Below are positions 2,778-25,893 of a DNA stretch of 25,893 bases, one piece after another. The notes under the pieces are model-generated. The model saw only the letters and a program-made list of their open reading frames with translations. It made no database searches and had not been told where the DNA came from. Position 1 is the first letter of the stretch. Every line of letters begins with the position of its first letter. Location of the stretch: positions 1-25,893 of IMG/VR virus record IMGVR_UViG_3300014168_000015, one strand, 5' to 3'. The translations under genes and the position numbers were made by a program. Origin of the DNA: a virus (Duplodnaviria; Caudoviricetes).

Positions 2778-5700
2778 TTATGAAGCGTAAGCGGTCCCAG
2801 CAGTCGGTAAAAGGAAATTCAGCACGATGGTCCCGACTCCATCGAAGGTTAGATCACGAGCCACATCATTTCCATTCGTGTCGATGACAGAAATATTCAC
2901 ATAATGGCCTGTGGGGTTGGGGAATGTCCAGGTAAGCTCTGGAGTGGGCTGCTCATACTCGAAGTATTTGACCAAGGCTCCCCCATTTCCACCCGTATCC
3001 ATGGGGATATTGGGTTGATAAATGAATTTATCCACATCCGTGGCACGACCCACTGCAATAACCCATCGGCAATTGGTACTCACATAGTTAAAATCATGGG
3101 TCAGTAATCCACCAGGACCAACGTAGAGAATCTGACCCGGAAGAAGATTTCCAGAGGAGGTCAGTGGGGTAGTATTCGAGCCTGCAACTCCTGAAGGGGA
3201 TGCACTGGCCTGTACGGGCATGATGGTGGAGGTGGTGATCTGATACTCCTGGCCATACATCAAAGCTGTAGAAACGGTCTGGTTGGCCGCAGCATTGTTC
3301 AGGACCACTCCATCATAGTAAGGAGTGTCTGGTTGGTCTACTTCCGGAGTGATCGGAAGGGCTTTTCCATCGGCATTCGTATAGACTGCGGTCAATGAAA
3401 CCAATGGGGTGGCTGCTGGTTGCTGTTTAATCCCACTTCCAAGAATACCCCATGTGTATTTTCCATACACCGGCTCCGTGTCTGTCCCAGATAACTTGAG
3501 ATTGGAAGTGATTTTTGCAATTAATTGGTCTACCGAGACAGCCGCAGCGGACTCAGAGGTGTCAGAGGTGGTGGGAATAGTGCTAATCCCACCCGATTGA
3601 ATGATTTGGCCATCCGCTGAGACAGTAAATCCGTAGGAAGAGGTATCCAGTGTGAAGGCGAGGCACTGGAAATTGAAATCAGGGAGCAGCGTGGCGGTGC
3701 TCTGACCATTTGTGGAGGCGTATATCTGCACTGTGTCATTTTTGTTGAAAACTATCGTCTCATTCAACTGAATCGTCACCTGATCAATCACATTGTGCGA
3801 TTCCTGAGTGAAGACGGGAACTCCATTAATCCAAATTTGGATTTCGCGCACAGCGGGAACAGTTAGGGCTCCAAATACGTAAGTTCCGGTTAATAAATAA
3901 CTTCCAGCCGTCTGGATAGTGAAGAGGCCAGAAGAGGTGACATTTCCAACAATATCCAAAGGGGTCGTATCAAAACGAAGCAGTGTAGCGGTCGAAGGGC
4001 TGATGGAGGCAGACACACTACTGGAGACCTGGAAGCCTTGGATCACCGAATTGGCAACAATGGCCTTTAGGTTGGAGATTTCTTGTGAAGCGACAGCAAT
4101 GGACTTATTCCCATTGTTTAGAGCGGTTGCCCACGCACTATTCAGATCCAGCATAGTCAATTGAGTCGTAACCGGAAGAGCCTGGATGTCAGGACGACTC
4201 AGGAAAGTCTGAGCATCAAACGTCAAATTGGGAGAAATCCCACTCCAGCCTGCTGAGGCATCATCAGGGGGAACCCAAAGCCCTTGAGCATTGGCACTCG
4301 TGTCAATTTCGGTAGGCAAATTAATCAGATCTACCCCCGGAGTCCAACCAGCAGATCGGGTAGTTGCATCAGTGTAGAGATAAGTGTAGAGTGCCGTAGA
4401 ACCTAGCGGATTAACATTGGAATCGATGGTCTGCCAGTAATTCATCACGTATGGTAGGGCTACGGGGCTCTCAGAATTTGAGTTACTGGAAGCCACCAAT
4501 GCGTTGAAGCTGGCTGCCCACTCACGCCAATACTGGCTGTAACGATCCACTTCAGTCGCAAAAGCAAACTGGTCATAAATGAAACGGTAGCTTGGGTTCT
4601 GAGACTGGAATTGCGGATTATTCTGAATAGCAATCTGGCCGACTGCAATCGCAGCATTGACTTGCTTAGTCCAAGCCGGATCAATCATAATCGTTGAAGG
4701 ATAAGTAGCCAGACCATCGGAACTCAGCGTAACCGCCAGGGTACGAGTATCAATAGTTGTTTCAGAAAAATCTAGCGCCCCATCCGTATACCCAAAAAAT
4801 GAAGAAGTGGCGGAGGAATCCCATGTGGCGTTACGTGTATAGCCAAGGAGTGAGGCTTCCACGTAAGAAAGCTGCCATAAAAGAACACTGAGTTCTGGAT
4901 CCTGCATACTGTTGAGGATAGAGAGAATGGGGAGATCAGCGGGGCCACTCAGGATGTTATTAGGGTCCAGACCATTCCAGGGGGTGGGGGTGTTCTGCAA
5001 ATAAGAGACAGAGGGAACGATGTATTGCTGGTAGATAGCCTCGTACTCTGGAATCCAAGAACCGGCCCGACCTTGACGGCACAAGTAGAGATAGATGATC
5101 CATGCGGCGGAAATGTTGGAGTCTCGGTTAGCATTTACCTGTCCAAGGTTAATCGCAGAGACAACCTCAGCCTTGAATACGGCTGAATCAACCGTAGGAG
5201 CAATCGGAAGATTCGCCGCAGAGGCTATATTAGCAATGTACACTGCTGAGGGTAAGCTGTAGTTGTTTATGATGGATGCGGGAGCCGGAAGGGAACCCTG
5301 AAAATCAGTCGTTGGGTTAAATGAGGCCGGATAAAGGGGGGTTGTGGTGGTCGGAGGATTCAGGAACAGGGATTGGAACCCAGGGTCAGCCTGCTGATCC
5401 GGAGAGACGACAAAACCAGCAAATGGGCTGCTGCCGGGAGCATCCGGAGTGCCAAGAGCCGGGTTAACCGGTAGAGTAACCGAAGGAGCTACCGTTCCTG
5501 CGGTTACGGGAGTTGGAGAAACGAATGAAGCTGAAGCGATAGGTGAGGTTGCGTTGGTGATCGTATTCCCATAGGGGGCGATAGCAATACCGGGGGAGTA
5601 AAAAGGTTTGGGTGACTGAATCGTGCATTGAGGGAATGTAAAATGCAAATTCATCGAAGGCAGTCCTAGTTTGAGCCCCTTTAGGTTGAATCCCTGGAAG

Positions 5701-17955: not shown

Positions 17956-19059
17956 CTACCCTTCTCTTTCAAAATACTTTGTGATTCTTTCTGAACTTGG
18001 AGGGGCTTCATCAGATTGACTGGCTAGTTCAGAAATGGACTGTTGCACCACTCCCTGAGATCTGGCACGGATCTCTCGCTCTCTTCGTTTTACTTCAGCA
18101 TCAGTCACCACTACCAGGGATCCATCATCCTCAAGAGTAGCCAGTTCTGATCTACGCTTTTGTACACGAATCTGAAGTTCCCGTTCTCTCGCTTGTGCTT
18201 CATTTACTTGCTTGTTATAGAACTGCTGCATAAGTTGTTCATGTTTATCCCCATGCATCATTCCATCCATCTCACGAAGCAAACCTTGAACTGTGTTATC
18301 TTCGTGAGAGTGACCAAACCCATCCTCAAAATGTGGGGCATCGGACTGTAGTTTAGTGTAGTCAACAACCTCTGTCCAAGGTTCAATCTGATCCATTTTC
18401 AAAGAGTTGAGTTCACGAACCAATTCTTTTACATACTTATCCGCACTCTTCCCCACCTGGGCACGAACGATAGCACTCAGGTTAAGGCTCTCTTCCAATC
18501 GCGTAATAGATCGATTTCTAATAGCAGTAAGCAAAGCCCAGAGGCTAAGATGATTGGAAGGGGCCAGAAGTTTTATACTTTTCCCATCTGGTAGGGTGAT
18601 TACCTTTTGTTCAAACGTATGGTCATGTTTTGATTCCCATAAAAGTTGGCTAGTCTGAGTGGAACAAAAAGCAGAGATATAGGGGAATAGCGAGATATCT
18701 GCAATGTTAGCAGAGTAGATTCGGTGGAGGATAGAATTGATTTCATATATATCTAGGTCATTAACCTCATCCTCAGTAAGAGTAGTGCAATGAGTGAGCA
18801 CCAACAAGATTTTTTCCTCCTCATTTTCTATCATTCTATCTAAAATTTTGCGCTCTGAGGGTGCTAGAGGTCTGATCCACCCAATTCGTCTCCCATTTAA
18901 CTTAAGAGGGCGCACCCTAGCCCCTATAGTAATGATTTCTTCCATGGCGGAGGAGACCTTTTCTTTCACCTCAAGTGCTATGTTGGACTGCTTGTATTTC
19001 AATTCGCCAAGACTGATTTGGTTCATCAGATCGACGCCAGATGGGATTTCGCTCACCAT
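17956..19059 (-). CDS. Putative tail assembly chaperone-like protein (367 aa)
   Basis: LKLNGRRIGWIRPLAPSE chaperone-like motif, charged coiled-coil C-terminus, upstream of the tape measure; 7-nt overlap with the previous gene. Confidence 0.45.
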   Translation of the reverse strand: MVSEIPSGVDLMNQISLGELKYKQSNIALEVKEKVSSAMEEIITIGARVRPLKLNGRRIGWIRPLAPSERKILDRMIENEEEKILLVLTHCTTLTEDEVNDLDIYEINSILHRIYSANIADISLFPYISAFCSTQTSQLLWESKHDHTFEQKVITLPDGKSIKLLAPSNHLSLWALLTAIRNRSITRLEESLNLSAIVRAQVGKSADKYVKELVRELNSLKMDQIEPWTEVVDYTKLQSDAPHFEDGFGHSHEDNTVQGLLREMDGMMHGDKHEQLMQQFYNKQVNEAQARERELQIRVQKRRSELATLEDDGSLVVVTDAEVKRREREIRARSQGVVQQSISELASQSDEAPPSSERITKYFEREG

Positions 19060-19595
19060 TCCTCCTGATCCGTGCGGCCTTGTTTGGCCCTATTCATAAA
19101 GTTTTCTTCAATTTTCATGGCCCCCGCATAACCAGTTCCGGCCACGATTTTTTGGGCCAACGCCTTTTCATCTTCAACAGCCTGTCGGCCAAACTTCTGC
19201 GTTAAGAGTTCTTCCACTTCATCCATTTTCTCATCAGTCTCATTTTCTTCCTCTGCTAGCCCTTGACGATAATCCGCAGCATCCGGGGCCTTCCACCATG
19301 GAAGGACTTCAAACATTCGGTGAGGGTCCAGACTTCCTTTGTAGAATTTGTATACGGTCTCCAGAGCCCCCCGAGGGATTGAAGTCAAAACTTTCAGGGA
19401 CTCTTCGGGAGTTACATCTTTTCCAGATATATTATGAAGTGCGTGAGCGGTGATGGCCAAACGATCAGCCATCTTGTATTTTTCAATCCATTCGCTCACC
19501 ATAGACATATCTCCCCATCTAAGTCTACGGAAATGAAACACATGGTTCAAAACCTTCATTTCAAGGTCATTTTTAACTTCAGGAAGGGGGGTCAT
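19053..19595 (-). CDS. Putative tail assembly chaperone-like protein, first gene of the operon (~180 aa; ATG at 19595)
   Basis: GAGG SD 5 nt upstream of ATG 19595; LEMKVLNHVFHFRRLRWGD motif; acidic helical C-terminus. Confidence 0.45.
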   Translation of the reverse strand: MTPLPEVKNDLEMKVLNHVFHFRRLRWGDMSMVSEWIEKYKMADRLAITAHALHNISGKDVTPEESLKVLTSIPRGALETVYKFYKGSLDPHRMFEVLPWWKAPDAADYRQGLAEEENETDEKMDEVEELLTQKFGRQAVEDEKALAQKIVAGTGYAGAMKIEENFMNRAKQGRTDQEEW

Positions 19596-19813
19596 CAAAG
19601 CCTCTAAAGGGGTGTACAGAAGTCAAACGGGAAAAGTTCCAATTTTATGTGTTTCAGAGGCTCTTGGAATGGTCAAACCCGCATGAATCCTAGATTCTTG
19701 ATTCCACTGACCCTGAAATTCCCTATATAACTCCAATAAAAAGAAGAAGGGAATATATACACATATTATTTATTCTTTTCTTGTAAGGTTCTCTCAAGGA
19801 TGGGGAAGAAGTT
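19596..19813. promoter_or_regulatory. Divergent intergenic control region
   Basis: Non-coding gap between oppositely oriented gene blocks with an AT-rich core (19724-19790). Contains a minus-strand stem pairing 19597-19608 with 19653-19664 and a plus-strand imperfect inverted repeat at 19744-19755/19771-19782. No clean sigma70 -35/-10 pair was found. Confidence 0.55.
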
Positions 19814-21193
19814 TTGCTCACGGAACCTTCAGAAGGAATTGACTTCGAGTATCATCATGAGATGAAGCAGCTTTCCAGGACTACCCTTTTGATCACCCCA
19901 GGCACCCTTCCGGCTCTGCCGGAACCAGCCGGGTACTTTCGCAAGGGCGAGAAGTTCTTCTGGTACCAGTCCCCCGCGAGTGGAATCAAATGCGAAGGTG
20001 ACTGGCTTCATGATCGCCGGAGCGGATTCCAAAGCTGCCAGTCTGGTGGTATTCTTCCTGGCCTTCGCCAGGAGACAGACTACCGGGATGAGAATGGAGT
20101 CGTAGTGTTCCAGGCCCCATTTGATGAGTCGGATTACTCTGAGCAAACCCTGCGGCTTCGCAAGCTGGTCAAACTTCCGCCAGAGGCATCTGACACCTTG
20201 CTTCCTCATTTCAAAGCCTATCAGGTGGTATGGAATCGACTCGTTCATCTGGATCGTTCAGGAACTCTCATAAAAGCTAATACTGGAGACCCCTGTGAGC
20301 GAAAGGTTCGGCGGGATTATGTAAATCGTCGCAGCCAAGCGTCTAATCCGTTGAGGCTGAAGACTTGGAGAAGAGTAAACTCACTCCCCGTCACTGCCGA
20401 AATTCGGGTAGAACTCAAGCGGATGCTTCACTTAGACTGGCGACTCGTCATATCCATGCGTCTTCTTAGGCGAGGGAATACAGTGTGGCTAGCCTACACC
20501 CACAAGGAAGTTCGGGTTCACGAGGTGAATTTGAACCGCCGCAGCATCAACTCCTGCCGGGATCCTAGGTTGTGTGACATGGGTATCTGCTTCAGTCCCA
20601 ATGGGATGGCTGTACAGATTCAAAACCCCACGGAAGATCGACGGGGGAGTTTTATCCCCAAGGAAAAACTTACAAAGCAATACATTAATCAACTTGTAGC
20701 CCAGATGGTGGGAAAGATCAGGGTCGTAGCACTGGATCCGGTTTGCCCCGCTAATTTGTGCAACATTAAGACTTACCTAACACGTAAGCTCAGAACCCTA
20801 CAGGCGGAAGGTGCCATAGAGTTCCGATCACCCAAGCTGGTCTCCTTGGGTGCGAGATACAAGGACTGTCCTCAGCATCACCCGCTCCACCTACACGTGT
20901 GGCAGAGGAGCCTGATCAAGGAATGGTTTGACTACTCGTTAATCTTGGGACTAACTGGAAGGCCCCTGATGGTTCGGGAGGTAAATGGAACTCTGATCGG
21001 AGGAGACAGCCGACAGGTTATAAACCCGCTTACCCGAGCGAACCACGCCATCCAAACTGCTTTGGCTAAGATGGACTTGTGGCATGGAGCCACCTTTCTT
21101 CGTAGTAAAAGCTGGCAAAGAGTGCGATCAGCGTTCTACCGTCAACAATGTAAACTCCAATCAAAAGAAGAAAAACATCATGAGGATATGTAG
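19814..21193 (+). CDS. Degenerate IS607-TnpB/Fanzor-like protein, probably nuclease-inactive (459 aa; true start could be ATG 19862)
   Basis: Colinear motif resemblance by eye: LRLRKLVKLPPEASDTLLPHFKAYQVVWNRLV (TnpB N-terminal strand and helices), MRLLRRGNTVWLAY (WED), SCRDPRLCDMGICFSPNGMAVQI (cf. RuvC-I LDPGVRTF.TGYSPDG), YINQLVAQMVGKIRVVALDP (RuvC-II region), IKTYLTRKL, YKDCPQH (zinc-finger remnant). No DRD.N RuvC-III motif. Confidence 0.5.
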   Translation: MLTEPSEGIDFEYHHEMKQLSRTTLLITPGTLPALPEPAGYFRKGEKFFWYQSPASGIKCEGDWLHDRRSGFQSCQSGGILPGLRQETDYRDENGVVVFQAPFDESDYSEQTLRLRKLVKLPPEASDTLLPHFKAYQVVWNRLVHLDRSGTLIKANTGDPCERKVRRDYVNRRSQASNPLRLKTWRRVNSLPVTAEIRVELKRMLHLDWRLVISMRLLRRGNTVWLAYTHKEVRVHEVNLNRRSINSCRDPRLCDMGICFSPNGMAVQIQNPTEDRRGSFIPKEKLTKQYINQLVAQMVGKIRVVALDPVCPANLCNIKTYLTRKLRTLQAEGAIEFRSPKLVSLGARYKDCPQHHPLHLHVWQRSLIKEWFDYSLILGLTGRPLMVREVNGTLIGGDSRQVINPLTRANHAIQTALAKMDLWHGATFLRSKSWQRVRSAFYRQQCKLQSKEEKHHEDM

Positions 21194-21371
21194 CCTTGTT
21201 CCTCAACCTGAGTGTTACCGCATCCCCCTCCGGGGGTAACACCATACCCCAACTTGGACTTGCCGCCTAGTCTAGCTATGAGAAGGCCGCTCTACACCAC
21301 GCAAGACCCGCAATACCTACCGTAACACTAGAAGAAATACCAAAAATTGGCTCCCAACAGGGGGTAGAGTG
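21181..21371 (+). ncRNA. Candidate structured RNA (omegaRNA-like?) downstream of the TnpB-like gene
   Basis: Several stems in ~190 nt: TGAGGA/TCCTCA (21181-86/21200-05), GTGTTAC/GTAACAC (21212-18/21236-42) with inner CCCC/GGGG, TTGGACT/AGTCTAG (21254-60/21269-75), CGCTCTAC/GTAGAGTG (21288-95/21364-71), CCAA/TTGG (21340-50). Expression is unproven. Confidence 0.3.
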
Positions 21372-21379
21372 AGTATTAT
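21361..21379 (+). promoter_or_regulatory. Putative promoter motif GGGGT-N6-AGTATT overlapping a TATTAT -10-like hexamer
   Basis: The same motif occurs at 22223-22239; TATTAT (21374-79) ends 6 nt before ATG 21386. Confidence 0.4.
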
Positions 21380-21385
21380 CTAGGT

Positions 21386-22189
21386 ATGCCACAAGACTTG
21401 AACCTGATCTGCAACGAAGATATCCGCATCGACAAAGGGATGTTGGAGGACTACAGCTTTTTTCATTTTCAGGAACTTGTTGCATTTCCAAAAATGAACG
21501 ACTTGATCTTCAGAAGTCGGCTCTTTTCTACCGCTTGGCTATCACGCAAAGAGATACTTCAAAAAATTCAAAAATTCTTTTTTGAGGGTAACCGGTTAGG
21601 TCAGTCCCTAAACAAAAAAGAGTTGTCTCTGGAGCGTGATTACCATATCCTGTTTGACCCCAAAGAACAACTTGATTTACTCCTGGCTGAGGAAGCAGAT
21701 TTCCTTCCCCGAAACCAGACTCACAGAGGCCACGAAGACTATGCCCTTTTGGCTGAGTTAGCTAGACTGCAAACCAGGGAAGCTCTTCCCGAAGAAGGGG
21801 AGCAGCTATTCAAGGCCACCAATCTTGCTCTCAGTAGAAAGACGCCAAAAATTTCCTCAATTTGGTTGTCTTGTCAATTGATGAGTGAAAAAGGGCTGTA
21901 TATTGGCCCTCAGTTCTATGCTCCCAATGTCAAATCCGCTGAAGCATTTGCGGGGATTGTGGATGCGGCCTTGGCTCAAGAGACTCCCCTGACTGACAAG
22001 AAAGTAGTGGGGCTATATGCCCTTGGATTCCTGCCCCCTGATCCTACACTCATGACCAAAAAGGCTATTGATGAGGAGTTTCTGTTGGTGGAGAAAATCA
22101 TAACCACTAAACGAGCCCAGATGGCACCGAGCGAAGAGCTTAACGAGCCTAGTTGGAATCCTGAGAATACTACAACCGAAGAACTTTGA
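21386..22189 (+). CDS. Hypothetical protein (267 aa)
   Basis: Long ATG-initiated ORF filling the gap before nrdJ; largely helical with an acidic tail; no recognised motif. Confidence 0.8.
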   Translation: MPQDLNLICNEDIRIDKGMLEDYSFFHFQELVAFPKMNDLIFRSRLFSTAWLSRKEILQKIQKFFFEGNRLGQSLNKKELSLERDYHILFDPKEQLDLLLAEEADFLPRNQTHRGHEDYALLAELARLQTREALPEEGEQLFKATNLALSRKTPKISSIWLSCQLMSEKGLYIGPQFYAPNVKSAEAFAGIVDAALAQETPLTDKKVVGLYALGFLPPDPTLMTKKAIDEEFLLVEKIITTKRAQMAPSEELNEPSWNPENTTTEEL

Positions 22190-22219
22190 TGCAGAGAATG
22201 TTTTTTGCATTTCTACATC

Positions 22220-22239
22220 ACTGGGGTTAACCCAGTATT
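22220..22239 (+). promoter_or_regulatory. Putative nrdJ promoter/operator: GGGGT-N6-AGTATT motif overlapping the inverted repeat ACTGGG-GTTAA-CCCAGT
   Basis: Inverted repeat 22220-22225/22231-22236; motif shared with 21361-21377; AGGAG SD follows at 22248-22252. Confidence 0.4.
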
Positions 22240-22258
22240 TGTAATTTAGGAGCGGTGC

Positions 22259-25200
22259 GTGATCGACAAGATTTTGACCTATCAGGAACTCTATGATGAA
22301 TACCTCACAAGCAAAGGATCAAATGTAAATAGTGCATCTGCCTCACTTAAGAGTGAAGCGAACGCCTATGCCAAATGCTACGAGTGGTATATTGAGAAGA
22401 TGAAGGTTTTACCAGAAAATGCAACTTTGGCTTCTCGTATTTGGGTAGATAAATATGCCCTTCATACTCAAACTGGAGAATGCTGTGAGCAAACTCCTGC
22501 GGAAATGTGGGATCGCATTTCCATAGTTTTGGCAAATGAAGAAATGAAAAGCCCTTCCAACACCAAGGAGTTTTCCTATTGGAAAGATAAGTTTTATGGT
22601 GTGCTGGACGGGTGGAAATACTCCCCACAGGGCTCAGGGCTGTTTGCGTTGGGGAACCCCTACGTGAAGGCCAGCAGTTCAAATTGCTTCACCCTGCCCC
22701 CACCGGAGGACAATCTGGAGTCCATCTTTGATACGGCCAAGAACATGGCTCGAATCTTTGCGTTCCGAGGTGGGGAGGGGCACGATATCAGCAATCTTCG
22801 ACCCCGAGGAGCAGCTACAAATAATGCGGCCCGATCCTCTACGGGTGCGGCCAGCTTCATGGATTTTTACTCGTATGTGACAGGAATGATTGGACAATCA
22901 GGCCGTAGAGGGGCGAACCTTCAGACCATGAGGATCAGTCACCCTGACATTGAGCTTTTCATTGAAGAGAAATCAGATATGAGGAAGCAACCATTCTTTG
23001 AGGAATTGGCTGGGGTAGGAATCAACATCAATGACTACAAATGGGCAGCCATAGCTGATCGCCTCAAGTCAACAAGCCACTCCAATGTGTCGGTTCGGAT
23101 CAACGATAAGTTCATGAAAGCCGTCAAGGAAGATGGGGAATACGAACTTTGGTTTGAGTTCAAAGATAACGCCTATCCTCGAATCTCTAGAATGATTCAA
23201 GCCCGAGTCTTATGGGACAAGTTGATGCATCATGCTTGGAGTTCGGCGGAACCAGGGATCCTCAACTGGGATCACATTATTCGTGAATCACCAGCGGATC
23301 AATACACAAACCTCCCTGAGATAGAGTTCACTGATCCGGCAACCGGAGAAACTAAGTGGGTCAGCTATTCATTTGAAACGGTGGGATTGAACCCATGCCT
23401 TACTGGTGACACCTGGATACTCACAGACGAGGGAGCTAGGCAGATTAAAGATTTGATAGGTGTTCCCCACCTCACCACCCTTGATGGTGAGCGGTTCTCA
23501 GCCACAGGATTTTGGTCCACTGGGGTCAAACCTGTGTTTAAAATCTCAACTAATCGAGGACACTCTGTTAAAGCTACGGCAAACCACAAGTTTCTGACCA
23601 AGCGCGGATGGGTAGAGGTGCAGGATCTTCAACTCAAGGATGAACTCCTCCTAAGTCAAAACAATAACCAGCTTGAGTGGGAGGGGGAGGGAGGCACCTT
23701 TGAAAATGGGTACCTAGTGGGCTCCTTGCTAGGTGATGGACATTATCTTACCTCCAGTAAGTCTGCTATTTTAGGGTTCTGGGGAGACGGAAAGCAGACG
23801 GCACAAAAGGCCATTGATTTTATTAAACTCCTCCCACCCCTATCAGAGAAGCCCCCCATACCTTTTGGATCAAAAATCAATTTAGACCCCGTGGGGGACC
23901 GAATTTACATCAGGTCTGCCCAGCTATTTGACCTCTGTCAAAGGTATCTTGAGTTTCCCACCAAGAAACCCCTAGATAGCGTCGAACGCGCAAGTTCTGA
24001 TTTTACCAGGGGCTTCTTGTCTGGTCTTTTTGATGCTGATGGAACCGTGTTGGTTAGCTTACAGAAGGGTAGTTCTGTTAGACTTAATCAGTCTAATGTC
24101 CCCCTACTCCAGCTTGTCCAGAGGCTCCTAGCTCGTCTAGGTATTAACTCCTCCATATATGAGAATCGACATAAGGCAGAATTTCGTGAGATGCCCCTCA
24201 ATGATGGGACCGGTGCCTCACAGCCTTACTGGTGCAAAGCTAATCATGAGTTGATAATCTCTCGAAGCAGTATCGCTGTGTTTAGTGACCGAGTTGGGTT
24301 TCTTCAAGACAGCAAGGCCGAGAAATTAGCATCAATCCTGTTCTCTCGTAAGCGTAGCCCATATAAAGACTGCATTACCACTAAGGTGATATCTATTGAG
24401 CCTGCTGGAGAGGAAGAGGTATTTGATTGTACGGTTGAAGGCCCTCATGCATTTGATGCTAATGGCCTAGTGTCCCACAATTGTGCTGAAGAAACCTTGA
24501 GTGCATTCGACTCATGTAATCTGGGTCTATTCCTTCTCCCCGCTTTTGTGAAGAATCCGTACACTCCAGAGGCTAGCTTTGATTTTGAGGCTTATGGAGA
24601 AGTCATTGCCATGGGGGTTAGGGCTCAAGATAATATCAAGTCCTGGGATCTGCCAATCCTTCCACTTGAGGGCAACCGCATTGCTGGAGTGCTGGGTCGG
24701 CGTATTTCTGTGGGCAACACGGGATTGGCTGATGCGTTGGCTATGTTGGGACTCCGTTACGACACGGACGAGGCAATTCAGATGGCTGAGTCTATCTATG
24801 ACTTCTTGGCGAATGCTGCCTATCAGACTTCTGCTCGTTTGGCTGAAGAAAAGGGTAGCTTCCAGATTTTTGACTGGGAACGCCACAAGAAAAGTCCTTT
24901 CATTCAGCGTCTGAGTAAAGAAACTCAGAAACTAATCCGAACCAAGGGTCTCCGGAATATTGGTCTTCTGACTCAATCTCCTGCCGGTTCTCTGAGCATC
25001 GAGATGCGGAATTGCACCTCTGGGATTGAACCACTCTTCCTAGCAGCAATGAGCCGCAGCGTAAAGGTTCCAGGATCCGGAGATACGGTGCAGTATATCG
25101 TCTATCACCAGGGTATCCAGGATGCACTGAACATTAATCCTGATTTTGACAAATCTATCTATGTGGAGGCCAACTCCATTGACTATCACAAGCGGATCAA

Positions 25201-25893
25201 GATGCAGGCTGCAATTCAGCGACACATTGATCACAGTATTAGTTCCACTGTCAATCTACCAAATGATGCCACCGTTGAGGATGTGAGTCAGCTTTACATG
25301 GAAGCCTTTGATAGTGGTCTTAAGGGGATCACGGTCTACCGAGATGGGTGCCGAACTGGTGTGTTGAACAGCATCAAAAAGGAAGCGGCAGAGCCAGTAG
25401 TTCGAAGAGAACGGCCCAAGACGACTGATATCAAAATCCACAAGGTCAAGTACCGCAACCTCAATTACATGGTCCTGGTGGGACTGGCAGATGGGAAGCC
25501 GATTGAAGTCTTTGGGGGTCTCGAAGATGGACTCAGCCTTCCTACCAAGTACCAGTCGGCCACTCTGACTAAGAAATCCAGGGGGCACTACAGTCTTGTC
25601 GTTCAGCTTTCAGATGACCCTGAAGATGTATTGAAGGTCAATAATGTTTCGGCCCGATTCCCCGCTGAAGATATCATGACTATCACCCGTCTGATCAGTT
25701 TGAGCATGAGGAATGGAGTTCCGGTCAGTGAAATCACAGATCAGCTTCAGAAGTCAGCCGGAGGAATGTTCGACGCTCCCGCCATTTTTGCCAGAGTGTT
25801 GAAGAACTATCTGGAAGATGAGGATCTGGTTCGAATGGCCGCTTCAAAGACATGCCCTCAGTGTGGTGGGGATATTGAAATCCGCCGCGAATC
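22259..25893 (+). CDS. nrdJ: Class II adenosylcobalamin-dependent ribonucleotide reductase, intein-containing (3' partial)
   Basis: Manual translation from GTG 22259 (AGGAG SD): IWVDKYAL, SNCF (Cys 22685), RGG.GHDISNLRPRG, GRRGA, HPDI, AEPG, NP|CAE...CNLG, SGIEP, SISSTVN, LKGITVYRDGCR (class II type, no class I C-terminal YY), then a C-terminal extra domain and the start of a CPQCGG zinc ribbon (25853). The frame stays open to the window end. Confidence 0.95.
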   Translation, partial: MIDKILTYQELYDEYLTSKGSNVNSASASLKSEANAYAKCYEWYIEKMKVLPENATLASRIWVDKYALHTQTGECCEQTPAEMWDRISIVLANEEMKSPSNTKEFSYWKDKFYGVLDGWKYSPQGSGLFALGNPYVKASSSNCFTLPPPEDNLESIFDTAKNMARIFAFRGGEGHDISNLRPRGAATNNAARSSTGAASFMDFYSYVTGMIGQSGRRGANLQTMRISHPDIELFIEEKSDMRKQPFFEELAGVGININDYKWAAIADRLKSTSHSNVSVRINDKFMKAVKEDGEYELWFEFKDNAYPRISRMIQARVLWDKLMHHAWSSAEPGILNWDHIIRESPADQYTNLPEIEFTDPATGETKWVSYSFETVGLNPCLTGDTWILTDEGARQIKDLIGVPHLTTLDGERFSATGFWSTGVKPVFKISTNRGHSVKATANHKFLTKRGWVEVQDLQLKDELLLSQNNNQLEWEGEGGTFENGYLVGSLLGDGHYLTSSKSAILGFWGDGKQTAQKAIDFIKLLPPLSEKPPIPFGSKINLDPVGDRIYIRSAQLFDLCQRYLEFPTKKPLDSVERASSDFTRGFLSGLFDADGTVLVSLQKGSSVRLNQSNVPLLQLVQRLLARLGINSSIYENRHKAEFREMPLNDGTGASQPYWCKANHELIISRSSIAVFSDRVGFLQDSKAEKLASILFSRKRSPYKDCITTKVISIEPAGEEEVFDCTVEGPHAFDANGLVSHNCAEETLSAFDSCNLGLFLLPAFVKNPYTPEASFDFEAYGEVIAMGVRAQDNIKSWDLPILPLEGNRIAGVLGRRISVGNTGLADALAMLGLRYDTDEAIQMAESIYDFLANAAYQTSARLAEEKGSFQIFDWERHKKSPFIQRLSKETQKLIRTKGLRNIGLLTQSPAGSLSIEMRNCTSGIEPLFLAAMSRSVKVPGSGDTVQYIVYHQGIQDALNINPDFDKSIYVEANSIDYHKRIKMQAAIQRHIDHSISSTVNLPNDATVEDVSQLYMEAFDSGLKGITVYRDGCRTGVLNSIKKEAAEPVVRRERPKTTDIKIHKVKYRNLNYMVLVGLADGKPIEVFGGLEDGLSLPTKYQSATLTKKSRGHYSLVVQLSDDPEDVLKVNNVSARFPAEDIMTITRLISLSMRNGVPVSEITDQLQKSAGGMFDAPAIFARVLKNYLEDEDLVRMAASKTCPQCGGDIEIRRE
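23396..24481 (+). mobile_element. Intein (362 aa) with LAGLIDADG homing endonuclease, inserted just before the thiyl-radical Cys of NrdJ
   Basis: Block A CLTGDTWI, block B ATANHKFLT, LAGLIDADG blocks GYLVGSLLGDG and GFLSGLFDADG, blocks F/G VFDCTVEGPHAFDANGLVSHN followed by +1 Cys (24482-84). Splicing restores GLNP-CAEETL. Confidence 0.96.

Follow-up and report, generated by a model that had tools for sequence, protein, structure and literature searches.

An intact, predicted TnpB-fold gene of large phages with a putative in-gene guide matching a site directly upstream

The locus, its neighbours and its relatives

The analysed DNA (the window) is a 25,893-nt stretch of a Caudoviricetes virus record (IMGVR_UViG_3300014168_000015). 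At positions 19814–21193 of its plus strand lies an uninterrupted open reading frame (ORF) for a TnpB-fold protein, 459 aa long from a TTG start. An alternative start at ATG 19862 is possible and would give 443 aa; forms of that length are on record. A preliminary description of the window had reported an intact 459-codon frame with TnpB-like motifs, divergent from the tail operon and without a neighbouring tnpA. Each of these points was borne out: the frame and the quoted motifs are present, a leftward tail-like operon adjoins the gene, and no transposase was found among the 15 window ORFs scanned. The gene is single-copy in each of two records, not multi-copy as would be the case for an IS200/IS605 or IS607 element.

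The first gene of the leftward operon (19053–19598, minus strand) is a conserved neighbour. Downstream of the TnpB-fold gene, a conserved 267-aa gene with no family assigned (21386–22189, plus strand) is followed by a ribonucleotide reductase with a LAGLIDADG intein (22259–25891). The reductase copy in locus L004 is 871 aa long versus 1236 aa in L001, which suggests an intein-free or split allele. Within the virion operon, a GIY-YIG/NUMOD3 homing endonuclease is encoded at 1070–1708 on the minus strand.

A word-indexed search returned 12 relatives with 41–90% identity to the window protein, and 31 matches, down to 18–24% identity, came from a full profile search over 1.84 billion representatives. 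Neither the window protein nor 13 relatives matched anything in Pfam, PHROGs, NCBIfam or PDB sequences, and three family members used as tblastn queries on cultured phages gave nothing or noise (E > 0.1). Two scans of bacterial and archaeal genomes confirmed 0/128 and 0/118 candidate stretches; viral scans for P0011 and the distant zinc-ribbon clade confirmed 0/6, 0/126 and 0/61. One zinc-ribbon-bearing distant relative, P0067, falls in a cluster that includes a Geothrix mesophila protein, encoded on a 1.65-Mb contig.

Among loci with DNA, the same neighbours surround the gene in large phage records, one of which is complete at 313 kb. This synteny holds across 29–43% protein identity. In all related loci that extend far enough, the gene is found at this position, and its 5′ part has diverged at synonymous sites to a degree similar to its neighbours. 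The dN/dS ratio was 0.087 between the window and L001 and 0.19 between the window and L003; for L008 it was 0.31, with dS near saturation. An intact frame, low dN/dS and synteny together identify a maintained gene and not a relic, and the earlier suggestion of selection rather than decay holds for the close relatives (dN/dS 0.09–0.19).

Several variations were seen around the locus. A large gene (614–915 aa) lies between the TnpB-fold gene and the 267-aa homologue in a distant clade (L035:5626-8373, L039:5665-8367, L009:817-2661). A membrane-protein-like gene, absent from the window, heads the leftward operon in L008 (2073–2753), L035 (3247–3726) and L039 (3125–3646). L040 carries a single-base difference from L039 at position 4931 that creates a premature stop, either an assembly error or a null allele.

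Other features were recorded in the related genomes. The 313-kb relative, G001, contains a CRISPR-like array of about 11 repeats of 35–36 nt (C1:239560-240335; end of L029, start of L030), in which two spacers share their first bases; no cas gene was recognised among 112 scanned G001 ORFs of 200–700 aa. The same genome has 49 tRNA calls at 9–17 kb and 201–262 kb, one of them read as Pyl (CTA anticodon), together with a tmRNA, and encodes a volactin-like actin homologue, RecA and an Acb1-like anti-CBASS protein (L026, L031). A large inversion distinguishes G001 from G003. Genome G002 carries an ordinary 349-aa TnpB (L034:1216-2265, minus strand; PF01385, PF07282) with no adjacent tnpA among the ORFs listed. 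This gene is absent from G001, in its clade the customary glutamate of RuvC-II is missing and a VNE motif contains an invariant E, and it served here as a reference only.

Predicted fold and catalytic residues

An AlphaFold2 model built on 13 sequences had a mean pLDDT of 70, rising to about 85 over aa 111–420. The first 110 aa mostly fell below 50; this part, which the preliminary description had taken for an unrelated N-terminal extension of about 110 aa, is also absent from several relatives. The best structural match among 48,161 chains was the TnpB-omegaRNA-DNA complex 8h1j (Z 11.2, rmsd 8.6, 247 aligned residues, aa 111–422), followed by Cas12k (Z 9.5), ISFba1 TnpB (8.9) and Fanzor2 (8.4). 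RNase-H-like and kinase folds reached Z 7–8.8, covering aa 250–425 only. In Foldseek, the first 13 matches listed were all Cas12f, TnpB or Fanzor2 (E 6e-4 to 1e-2, TM 0.17–0.27). The affinity once assigned specifically to IS607 TnpB and Fanzor2 does not follow from this ranking, in which 8h1j stands ahead of both ISFba1 TnpB and Fanzor2.

In the predicted structure, a WED/REC lobe and a RuvC fold are present in TnpB order, with modest fold scores. The WED/REC-like lobe (aa 111–233; 20144–20512, plus strand) superimposes over aa 113–233 on Cas12n (rmsd 2.9, Z 7.0); the core as a whole aligns to TnpB. The RuvC-like domain (aa 252–422; 20567–21079, plus strand) is modelled with only a short stretch between its third and fourth strands, in agreement with the shortened bridge-helix region noted earlier.

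Sequence profiles gave a weaker signal. Curated TnpB profiles (PF01385, PF07282, NCBIfam) matched neither the protein nor its relatives. The profile of the distant zinc-ribbon clade aligned end to end, over 277 columns, with ordinary TnpBs (hhalign, E 0.0037, probability 9%; reference set of 55 of 120 listed), and the full-family alignment reached a probability of only 0.4% against the TnpB profile. A language-model search was mixed, with TnpB-named clusters at 0.90 for the window protein and none for P0048. A CDPS/DIT1 lead from the language-model search was rejected, with a score under 0.9 and no support from the fold. The fold check proposed at the outset thus came out in two parts: the structural searches rank TnpB, Cas12f and Fanzor2 first, and the profile match is weak. 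Overall, TnpB ancestry appears highly likely, if remote.

Based on the model and alignment, the first RuvC strand spans aa 254–261. G257, kept in 36/40 aligned rows, matches the glycine of the TnpB GID motif, which places C259 at the position of the catalytic aspartate; none of the 38 non-gap rows (of 40) has an acid there. For RuvC-II, L307 and P340 occupy the two possible acid positions. L406 stands at the RuvC-III position, which is acidic in at most 5/40 rows. D308 is kept in 36/40 rows, one residue past the usual glutamate position, and D255 is a conserved acid in 28/40. These readings revise two assignments of the preliminary description. Its RuvC-I motif, D250-P-R, precedes the modelled first strand and D250 occurs in 17/40 rows only, and the VVALD308 segment, considered there as possible RuvC-I, is the fourth strand, i.e., RuvC-II. 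Its placement of RuvC-III at PLTRANHAI was correct: A409 is kept in 39/40 rows, and the segment aligns with the DVNAA region of TnpB.

By alignment, the D-E-D triad is absent in register, and the protein is probably nuclease-dead. The persistence of D255 and D308 leaves a small chance of a rearranged active site. The distant relatives carry CxxC...CxxC ahead of a G-x-L-L-A-x-R-A motif, a zinc ribbon whose CPxCG aligns with LGLTG of the window protein. As judged from this alignment, the zinc ribbon is lost in the window protein, where the CxxC pairs had already been described as gone, and is kept by the distant relatives. Fold searches, selection and synteny together support the initial view of a domesticated, catalytically eroded TnpB-fold protein.

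Predicted in-gene RNA structure and the putative guide/target pair

Two segments of the ORF may form conserved RNA structure. Two hairpins at 20793–20852 (plus strand) may represent the 5′ part of a putative scaffold or a separate element. A long hairpin and a short one at 21059–21144 (plus strand), ahead of the putative guide, form a candidate omega-RNA scaffold core. Consensus folds over six sequences were compared with codon-column shuffles, giving −20.4 versus −5.9 kcal/mol for the first segment and −19.9 versus −5.8 kcal/mol for the second, each equalled by 0/200 shuffles. Two-sided changes were found in 6/19 to 7/23 pairs of the first segment (six sequences). In the hairpins at about 21061–21136, 121/126 cells were paired and 6/21 pairs showed two-sided change. 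Control windows also beat shuffles at times (0, 4, 70 and 2 of 100), at energies of only −1 to −2 kcal/mol, so that the shuffle counts alone overstate the case. Single-sequence folding energies were not unusual.

Synonymous change drops toward the 3′ third of the gene, from 76/152 to 17/107 same-residue codons between the window and L003, and from 80/127 to 34/81 between L035 and L039. Two comparisons with L009 went in the same direction and were not significant. Recombination could contribute to the 3′ conservation between close lineages. RNA contigs covering 21061–21138 occurred in 6/6 RNA runs; the runs were chosen for holding the region and the contigs carry no strand, ends or level, making them a weak hint of in-gene RNA.

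A conserved 3′ non-coding stretch with hairpins follows at 21173–21330 (plus strand), 82–90% identical to L001 and L003. It has one short stem in common with L008, and its folding is not unusual (MFE z −0.32 for 21170–21385). A scaffold located 3′ of the guide, as in the IscB/Cas9 layout, was considered and rejected: this stretch folds no better than shuffles, and L035 and L039 have in common the sequence 5′ of the guide, not that 3′ of it. An Rfam search of 19500–22300 gave one chance match only.

By sequence alone, a predicted structured stretch followed by a putative guide is present at the 3′ end of the gene. The putative guide (21153–21172, plus strand), in the last codons of the ORF, matches the putative target (19729–19748, plus strand) at 19/20 positions and keeps the same register in five lineages. 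In the window, 85 nt separate the target from the TTG start and 131 nt from that of the leftward gene; across all lineages the target is upstream of the gene, at a distance of 85–165 nt from its start. Its 5′ flank, CTATAT (19723–19728, plus strand), is a candidate TAM or −10-like hexamer. The flank reads CTATAAT in two other lineages, and one of these two forms is found in 4/5 lineages, L008 not keeping it.

The self-match was found in 8/8 loci first tested and in 0/200 shuffles for each of three lineages shuffled. L003, L004 and L007 share one substitution that is present in both the guide and the target copies, and a single guide/target mismatch is kept across the window, L001–L004, L006 and L007. 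L008, at 43% identity, has a different, perfect 21-nt pair. A further search returned ten loci, six of them new; at 35% identity, five of these had perfect 27-nt pairs (5/5; 0/60 shuffles for each of two loci so treated). In the sixth, L040, guide and target are unchanged despite the premature stop. Overall, the self-match holds in 14/14 testable loci from five lineages, between which the sequences differ. This count leaves out L009, which is without the upstream region, and L005, the window's own record; the zinc-ribbon clade and P0004–P0013 are likewise outside the self-match counts.

Between L035 and L039, the same seven positions (3, 4, 7, 18, 19, 21 and 27) differ in both copies, so that 7/7 changes are mirrored. 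The 3′ flanks of the copies are unrelated (7/30 and 11/30 identical), and the 5′ flank of the in-gene copy is 28/30 identical. The in-gene copy of L035 spans the stop codon; protein coding therefore does not account for it. Within three mismatches, the 20-mer occurs only as the guide and target copies in the 313-kb and 147-kb records, and one extra two-mismatch match to a 17-nt pattern was found in 1/4 records. Inverted self-matches were at chance level only. In L039, positions 3842–3875 hold a long palindrome made up of the upstream target copy and the sequence 3′ of it; a second AT-rich hairpin follows.

RNA-guided binding of the phage's own locus appears likely from these sequence comparisons. 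The preliminary description had suggested RNA-guided DNA binding in a TldR-like repressor and did not include the guide/target pair. The covarying pair and the in-gene RNA structure favour the first part; repression is one of two near-equal outputs, and the target is the phage's own locus instead of a host promoter.

Possible roles at the target site

On the distal side of the target lies an AT-rich tract with an imperfect inverted repeat in DNA folds (19749–19783), the lowest-GC tract of the window. The distal tract has a GC content of 17–30% in all five lineages and ranks first for AT in the window, first to second in G003 and third to fourth in G001. In G001 and G003, the two near-complete relatives used for this purpose, the gap holding the target is also the best genome-wide divergent split of gene orientation, with 31/35 ORFs running one way and 135/160 the other in G001, and 75/77 and 57/62 in G003. 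An AT-rich unwinding tract at a gene-divergence point is accordingly present in both relatives and in the window. In G001, where the site is at 55 kb, the GC-skew extremes fall at 119 and 272 kb, and the skew maximum of G003 is 6.5 kb from the site. Third-position skew follows the gene strand, which makes GC skew uninformative on an origin. A promoter scan called no sigma-70-type promoter at the target. The target is immediately preceded by TATAAT in L035 and L039 and by TATAT in the window and L003. Sigma-70 region 2 (PF04542) was found in 0/3 related records, one of them complete, a search that a divergent sigma factor could escape.

Several known systems come close to this arrangement. TldR proteins bind TAM-flanked promoter targets and exclude RNA polymerase; they use a seed of about 6 nt, and their mature guides are 16 nt long (10.1101/2023.11.30.569447). 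Repression of promoters is likewise described in a second source (PMC13622181). The present protein resembles TldRs, among which a phage-borne clade is known, in being TnpB-derived, with eroded RuvC acids and no transposase (the zinc finger is lost in some TldRs) and with a guide (putative here) matching an intergenic site beside an AT-rich pentamer. It differs in its putative target, a site of the phage itself just ahead of the gene, in having the putative scaffold and guide within the 3′-terminal codons of the ORF, with a match of 20–27 nt, and in being too divergent for any TnpB profile, with a very short bridge-helix region. In dCas12f-sigmaE activators, one guide auto-regulates its own operon (PMC13472631). 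Those proteins share with the present one membership in the TnpB superfamily, a dead nuclease (predicted here), a T-rich stretch adjoining the target and a guide aimed at its own operon (putative here); unlike them, the phage locus has no repeat or multi-guide array, no sigma-70-family gene was found in the three related records, and the setting is a phage and not a host chromosome.

The predicted WED-REC-WED-RuvC order agrees with IS200/IS605 and IS607 TnpB (PDB 8h1j, 8exa, 8iaz) and Fanzor2 (9b0l). In native ISDra2, an RNA element lies within the 3′ part of the coding sequence (10.64898/2026.09.09.750255), and the putative element here likewise would overlap the 3′ coding region, with the guide at the RNA 3′ end. 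Unlike TnpB nucleases, the present gene is single-copy, has no tnpA and is missing the catalytic acids in register, and the guide's sole genomic match is its own upstream site, not an empty allele. A published cyanophage tnpB was also considered and is unrelated to this family. In the literature searched (main texts, with few subscription papers), neither this protein family nor a phage TldR that targets its own locus was described, and an RNA-guided initiator was likewise not found. Dead phage-borne TnpBs are already known; no in-gene guide aimed at its own upstream site at a genome's divergence point was found in the same literature.

We propose the following course of events. An intact, selected and syntenic gene would give a protein with the predicted TnpB-like WED/REC/RuvC fold, which, judging from the residue register, would not cleave. 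Covariation and synonymous constraint suggest a scaffold in the last 90–380 nt of the ORF, followed by the guide, which matches and co-evolves with the target. By analogy with TnpB biology, the complex may then bind as an R-loop beside the AT-rich, TAM-like flank. These six steps are likely to hold jointly. In the seventh and least certain step, the far end of the R-loop, the expected location of the 3′ end of the RNA, would point into the AT tract and help to melt or prime it; the same binding would, just as tentatively, damp the gene's own transcription. With this step included, self-RNA-guided binding that most likely opens a replication origin has somewhat less than an even chance. Stated in full, the tentative reading is of a nuclease-dead TnpB as an RNA-guided replication initiator: it would load a guide cut from the tail of its own mRNA and form an R-loop that opens, and perhaps primes, the origin in a jumbo-phage family.

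In plasmids and phages, an initiator gene often lies next to the origin that it serves. In the R-loop-primed origins of phage T4 and ColE1, RNA is made in cis at the origin. The proposed initiator would share with these and with Rep-ori cassettes an RNA:DNA hybrid by an AT-rich unwinding tract and an initiator gene by its own site; unlike in R-loop-primed origins, the RNA would arrive in trans through a TnpB-fold protein.

Nearly as plausible, and similarly short of an even chance, is a TldR-like transcription switch, in which the same self-binding complex would occupy the start site of the rightward promoter (serving the gene itself, the 267-aa gene and the reductase) and repress it, and may favour the leftward virion operon. 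The TldR and dCas12f precedents provide for promoter exclusion and operon auto-regulation; the distance of 85–165 nt between target and gene start in all lineages fits the switch, as do the TATAAT and TATAT elements that abut the target. Several points count against the origin reading: GC skew marks no origin here, promoters too have AT-rich tracts and divergence points, TATAAT precedes the target in 2/5 lineages, and L008 does not keep the 5′ flank. Against the switch, no sigma-70-type promoter was called at the site, and, going by the three records searched, a dCas12f-type activator would be without its known partner. Moreover, mirrored changes up to position 27 exceed the needs of a seed-dependent repressor: coupling over guide positions 18–27 goes beyond both the seed and the mature guide of TldR and counts for the origin. 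A purely self-regulating loop would not persist this long, and binding must therefore act at the site. Origin opening is slightly favoured over the switch on account of the extreme AT tract on the side of the RNA 3′ end, the genome-wide divergence and the coupling to position 27. The two outputs are not mutually exclusive.

Two other explanations are unlikely. The copies could be DNA direct repeats (an operator pair, recombination sites or gene-conversion copies) with no guide RNA; no small RNA was observed in the RNA data, which consist of contigs without ends or strand, the upstream copy in L039 is half of a palindrome, and gene conversion would mirror substitutions too. Yet a site read by a protein should keep its sequence, and the repeats differ across five lineages; the 3′ copy lies at a fixed register after conserved hairpins, the position of a TnpB guide; and the mismatch shared by the window and its close relatives has been retained. 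Similarly improbable is a homing-type nuclease that cuts or nicks by way of a rearranged active site, for which the upstream copy would be a protected duplicate from insertion. The conserved D308 and D255 and the many homing endonucleases of these phages are in its favour, against an acid that is missing at RuvC-I and rare at RuvC-III, a gene fixed at the same place in all sufficiently long loci with neighbour-like 5′ synonymous divergence, and an upstream-copy flank that is conserved in 4/5 lineages and resembles a TAM, not an element end. A relic of a decaying insertion sequence or chance resemblance to TnpB, which could be argued from the missing profile matches and the premature stop in one record, is very improbable and already contradicted by the selection and covariation results, as well as by synteny at 29–43% identity and the fold ranking.

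Known domesticated TnpBs are repressors, activators or transposon guides aimed at other loci. The present family escapes TnpB profiles and is fixed in a large-phage lineage, and its defined candidate guide, target and flank make it testable at once. If it opens an origin, this would be a new use of RNA guidance, a programmable replication start; if it acts as a switch, the main divergence point of the phage genome would carry an RNA-guided regulator complete in itself. With either output, the protein would be a compact natural RNA-guided DNA binder, with a core of about 310 aa and a much reduced predicted bridge-helix region.
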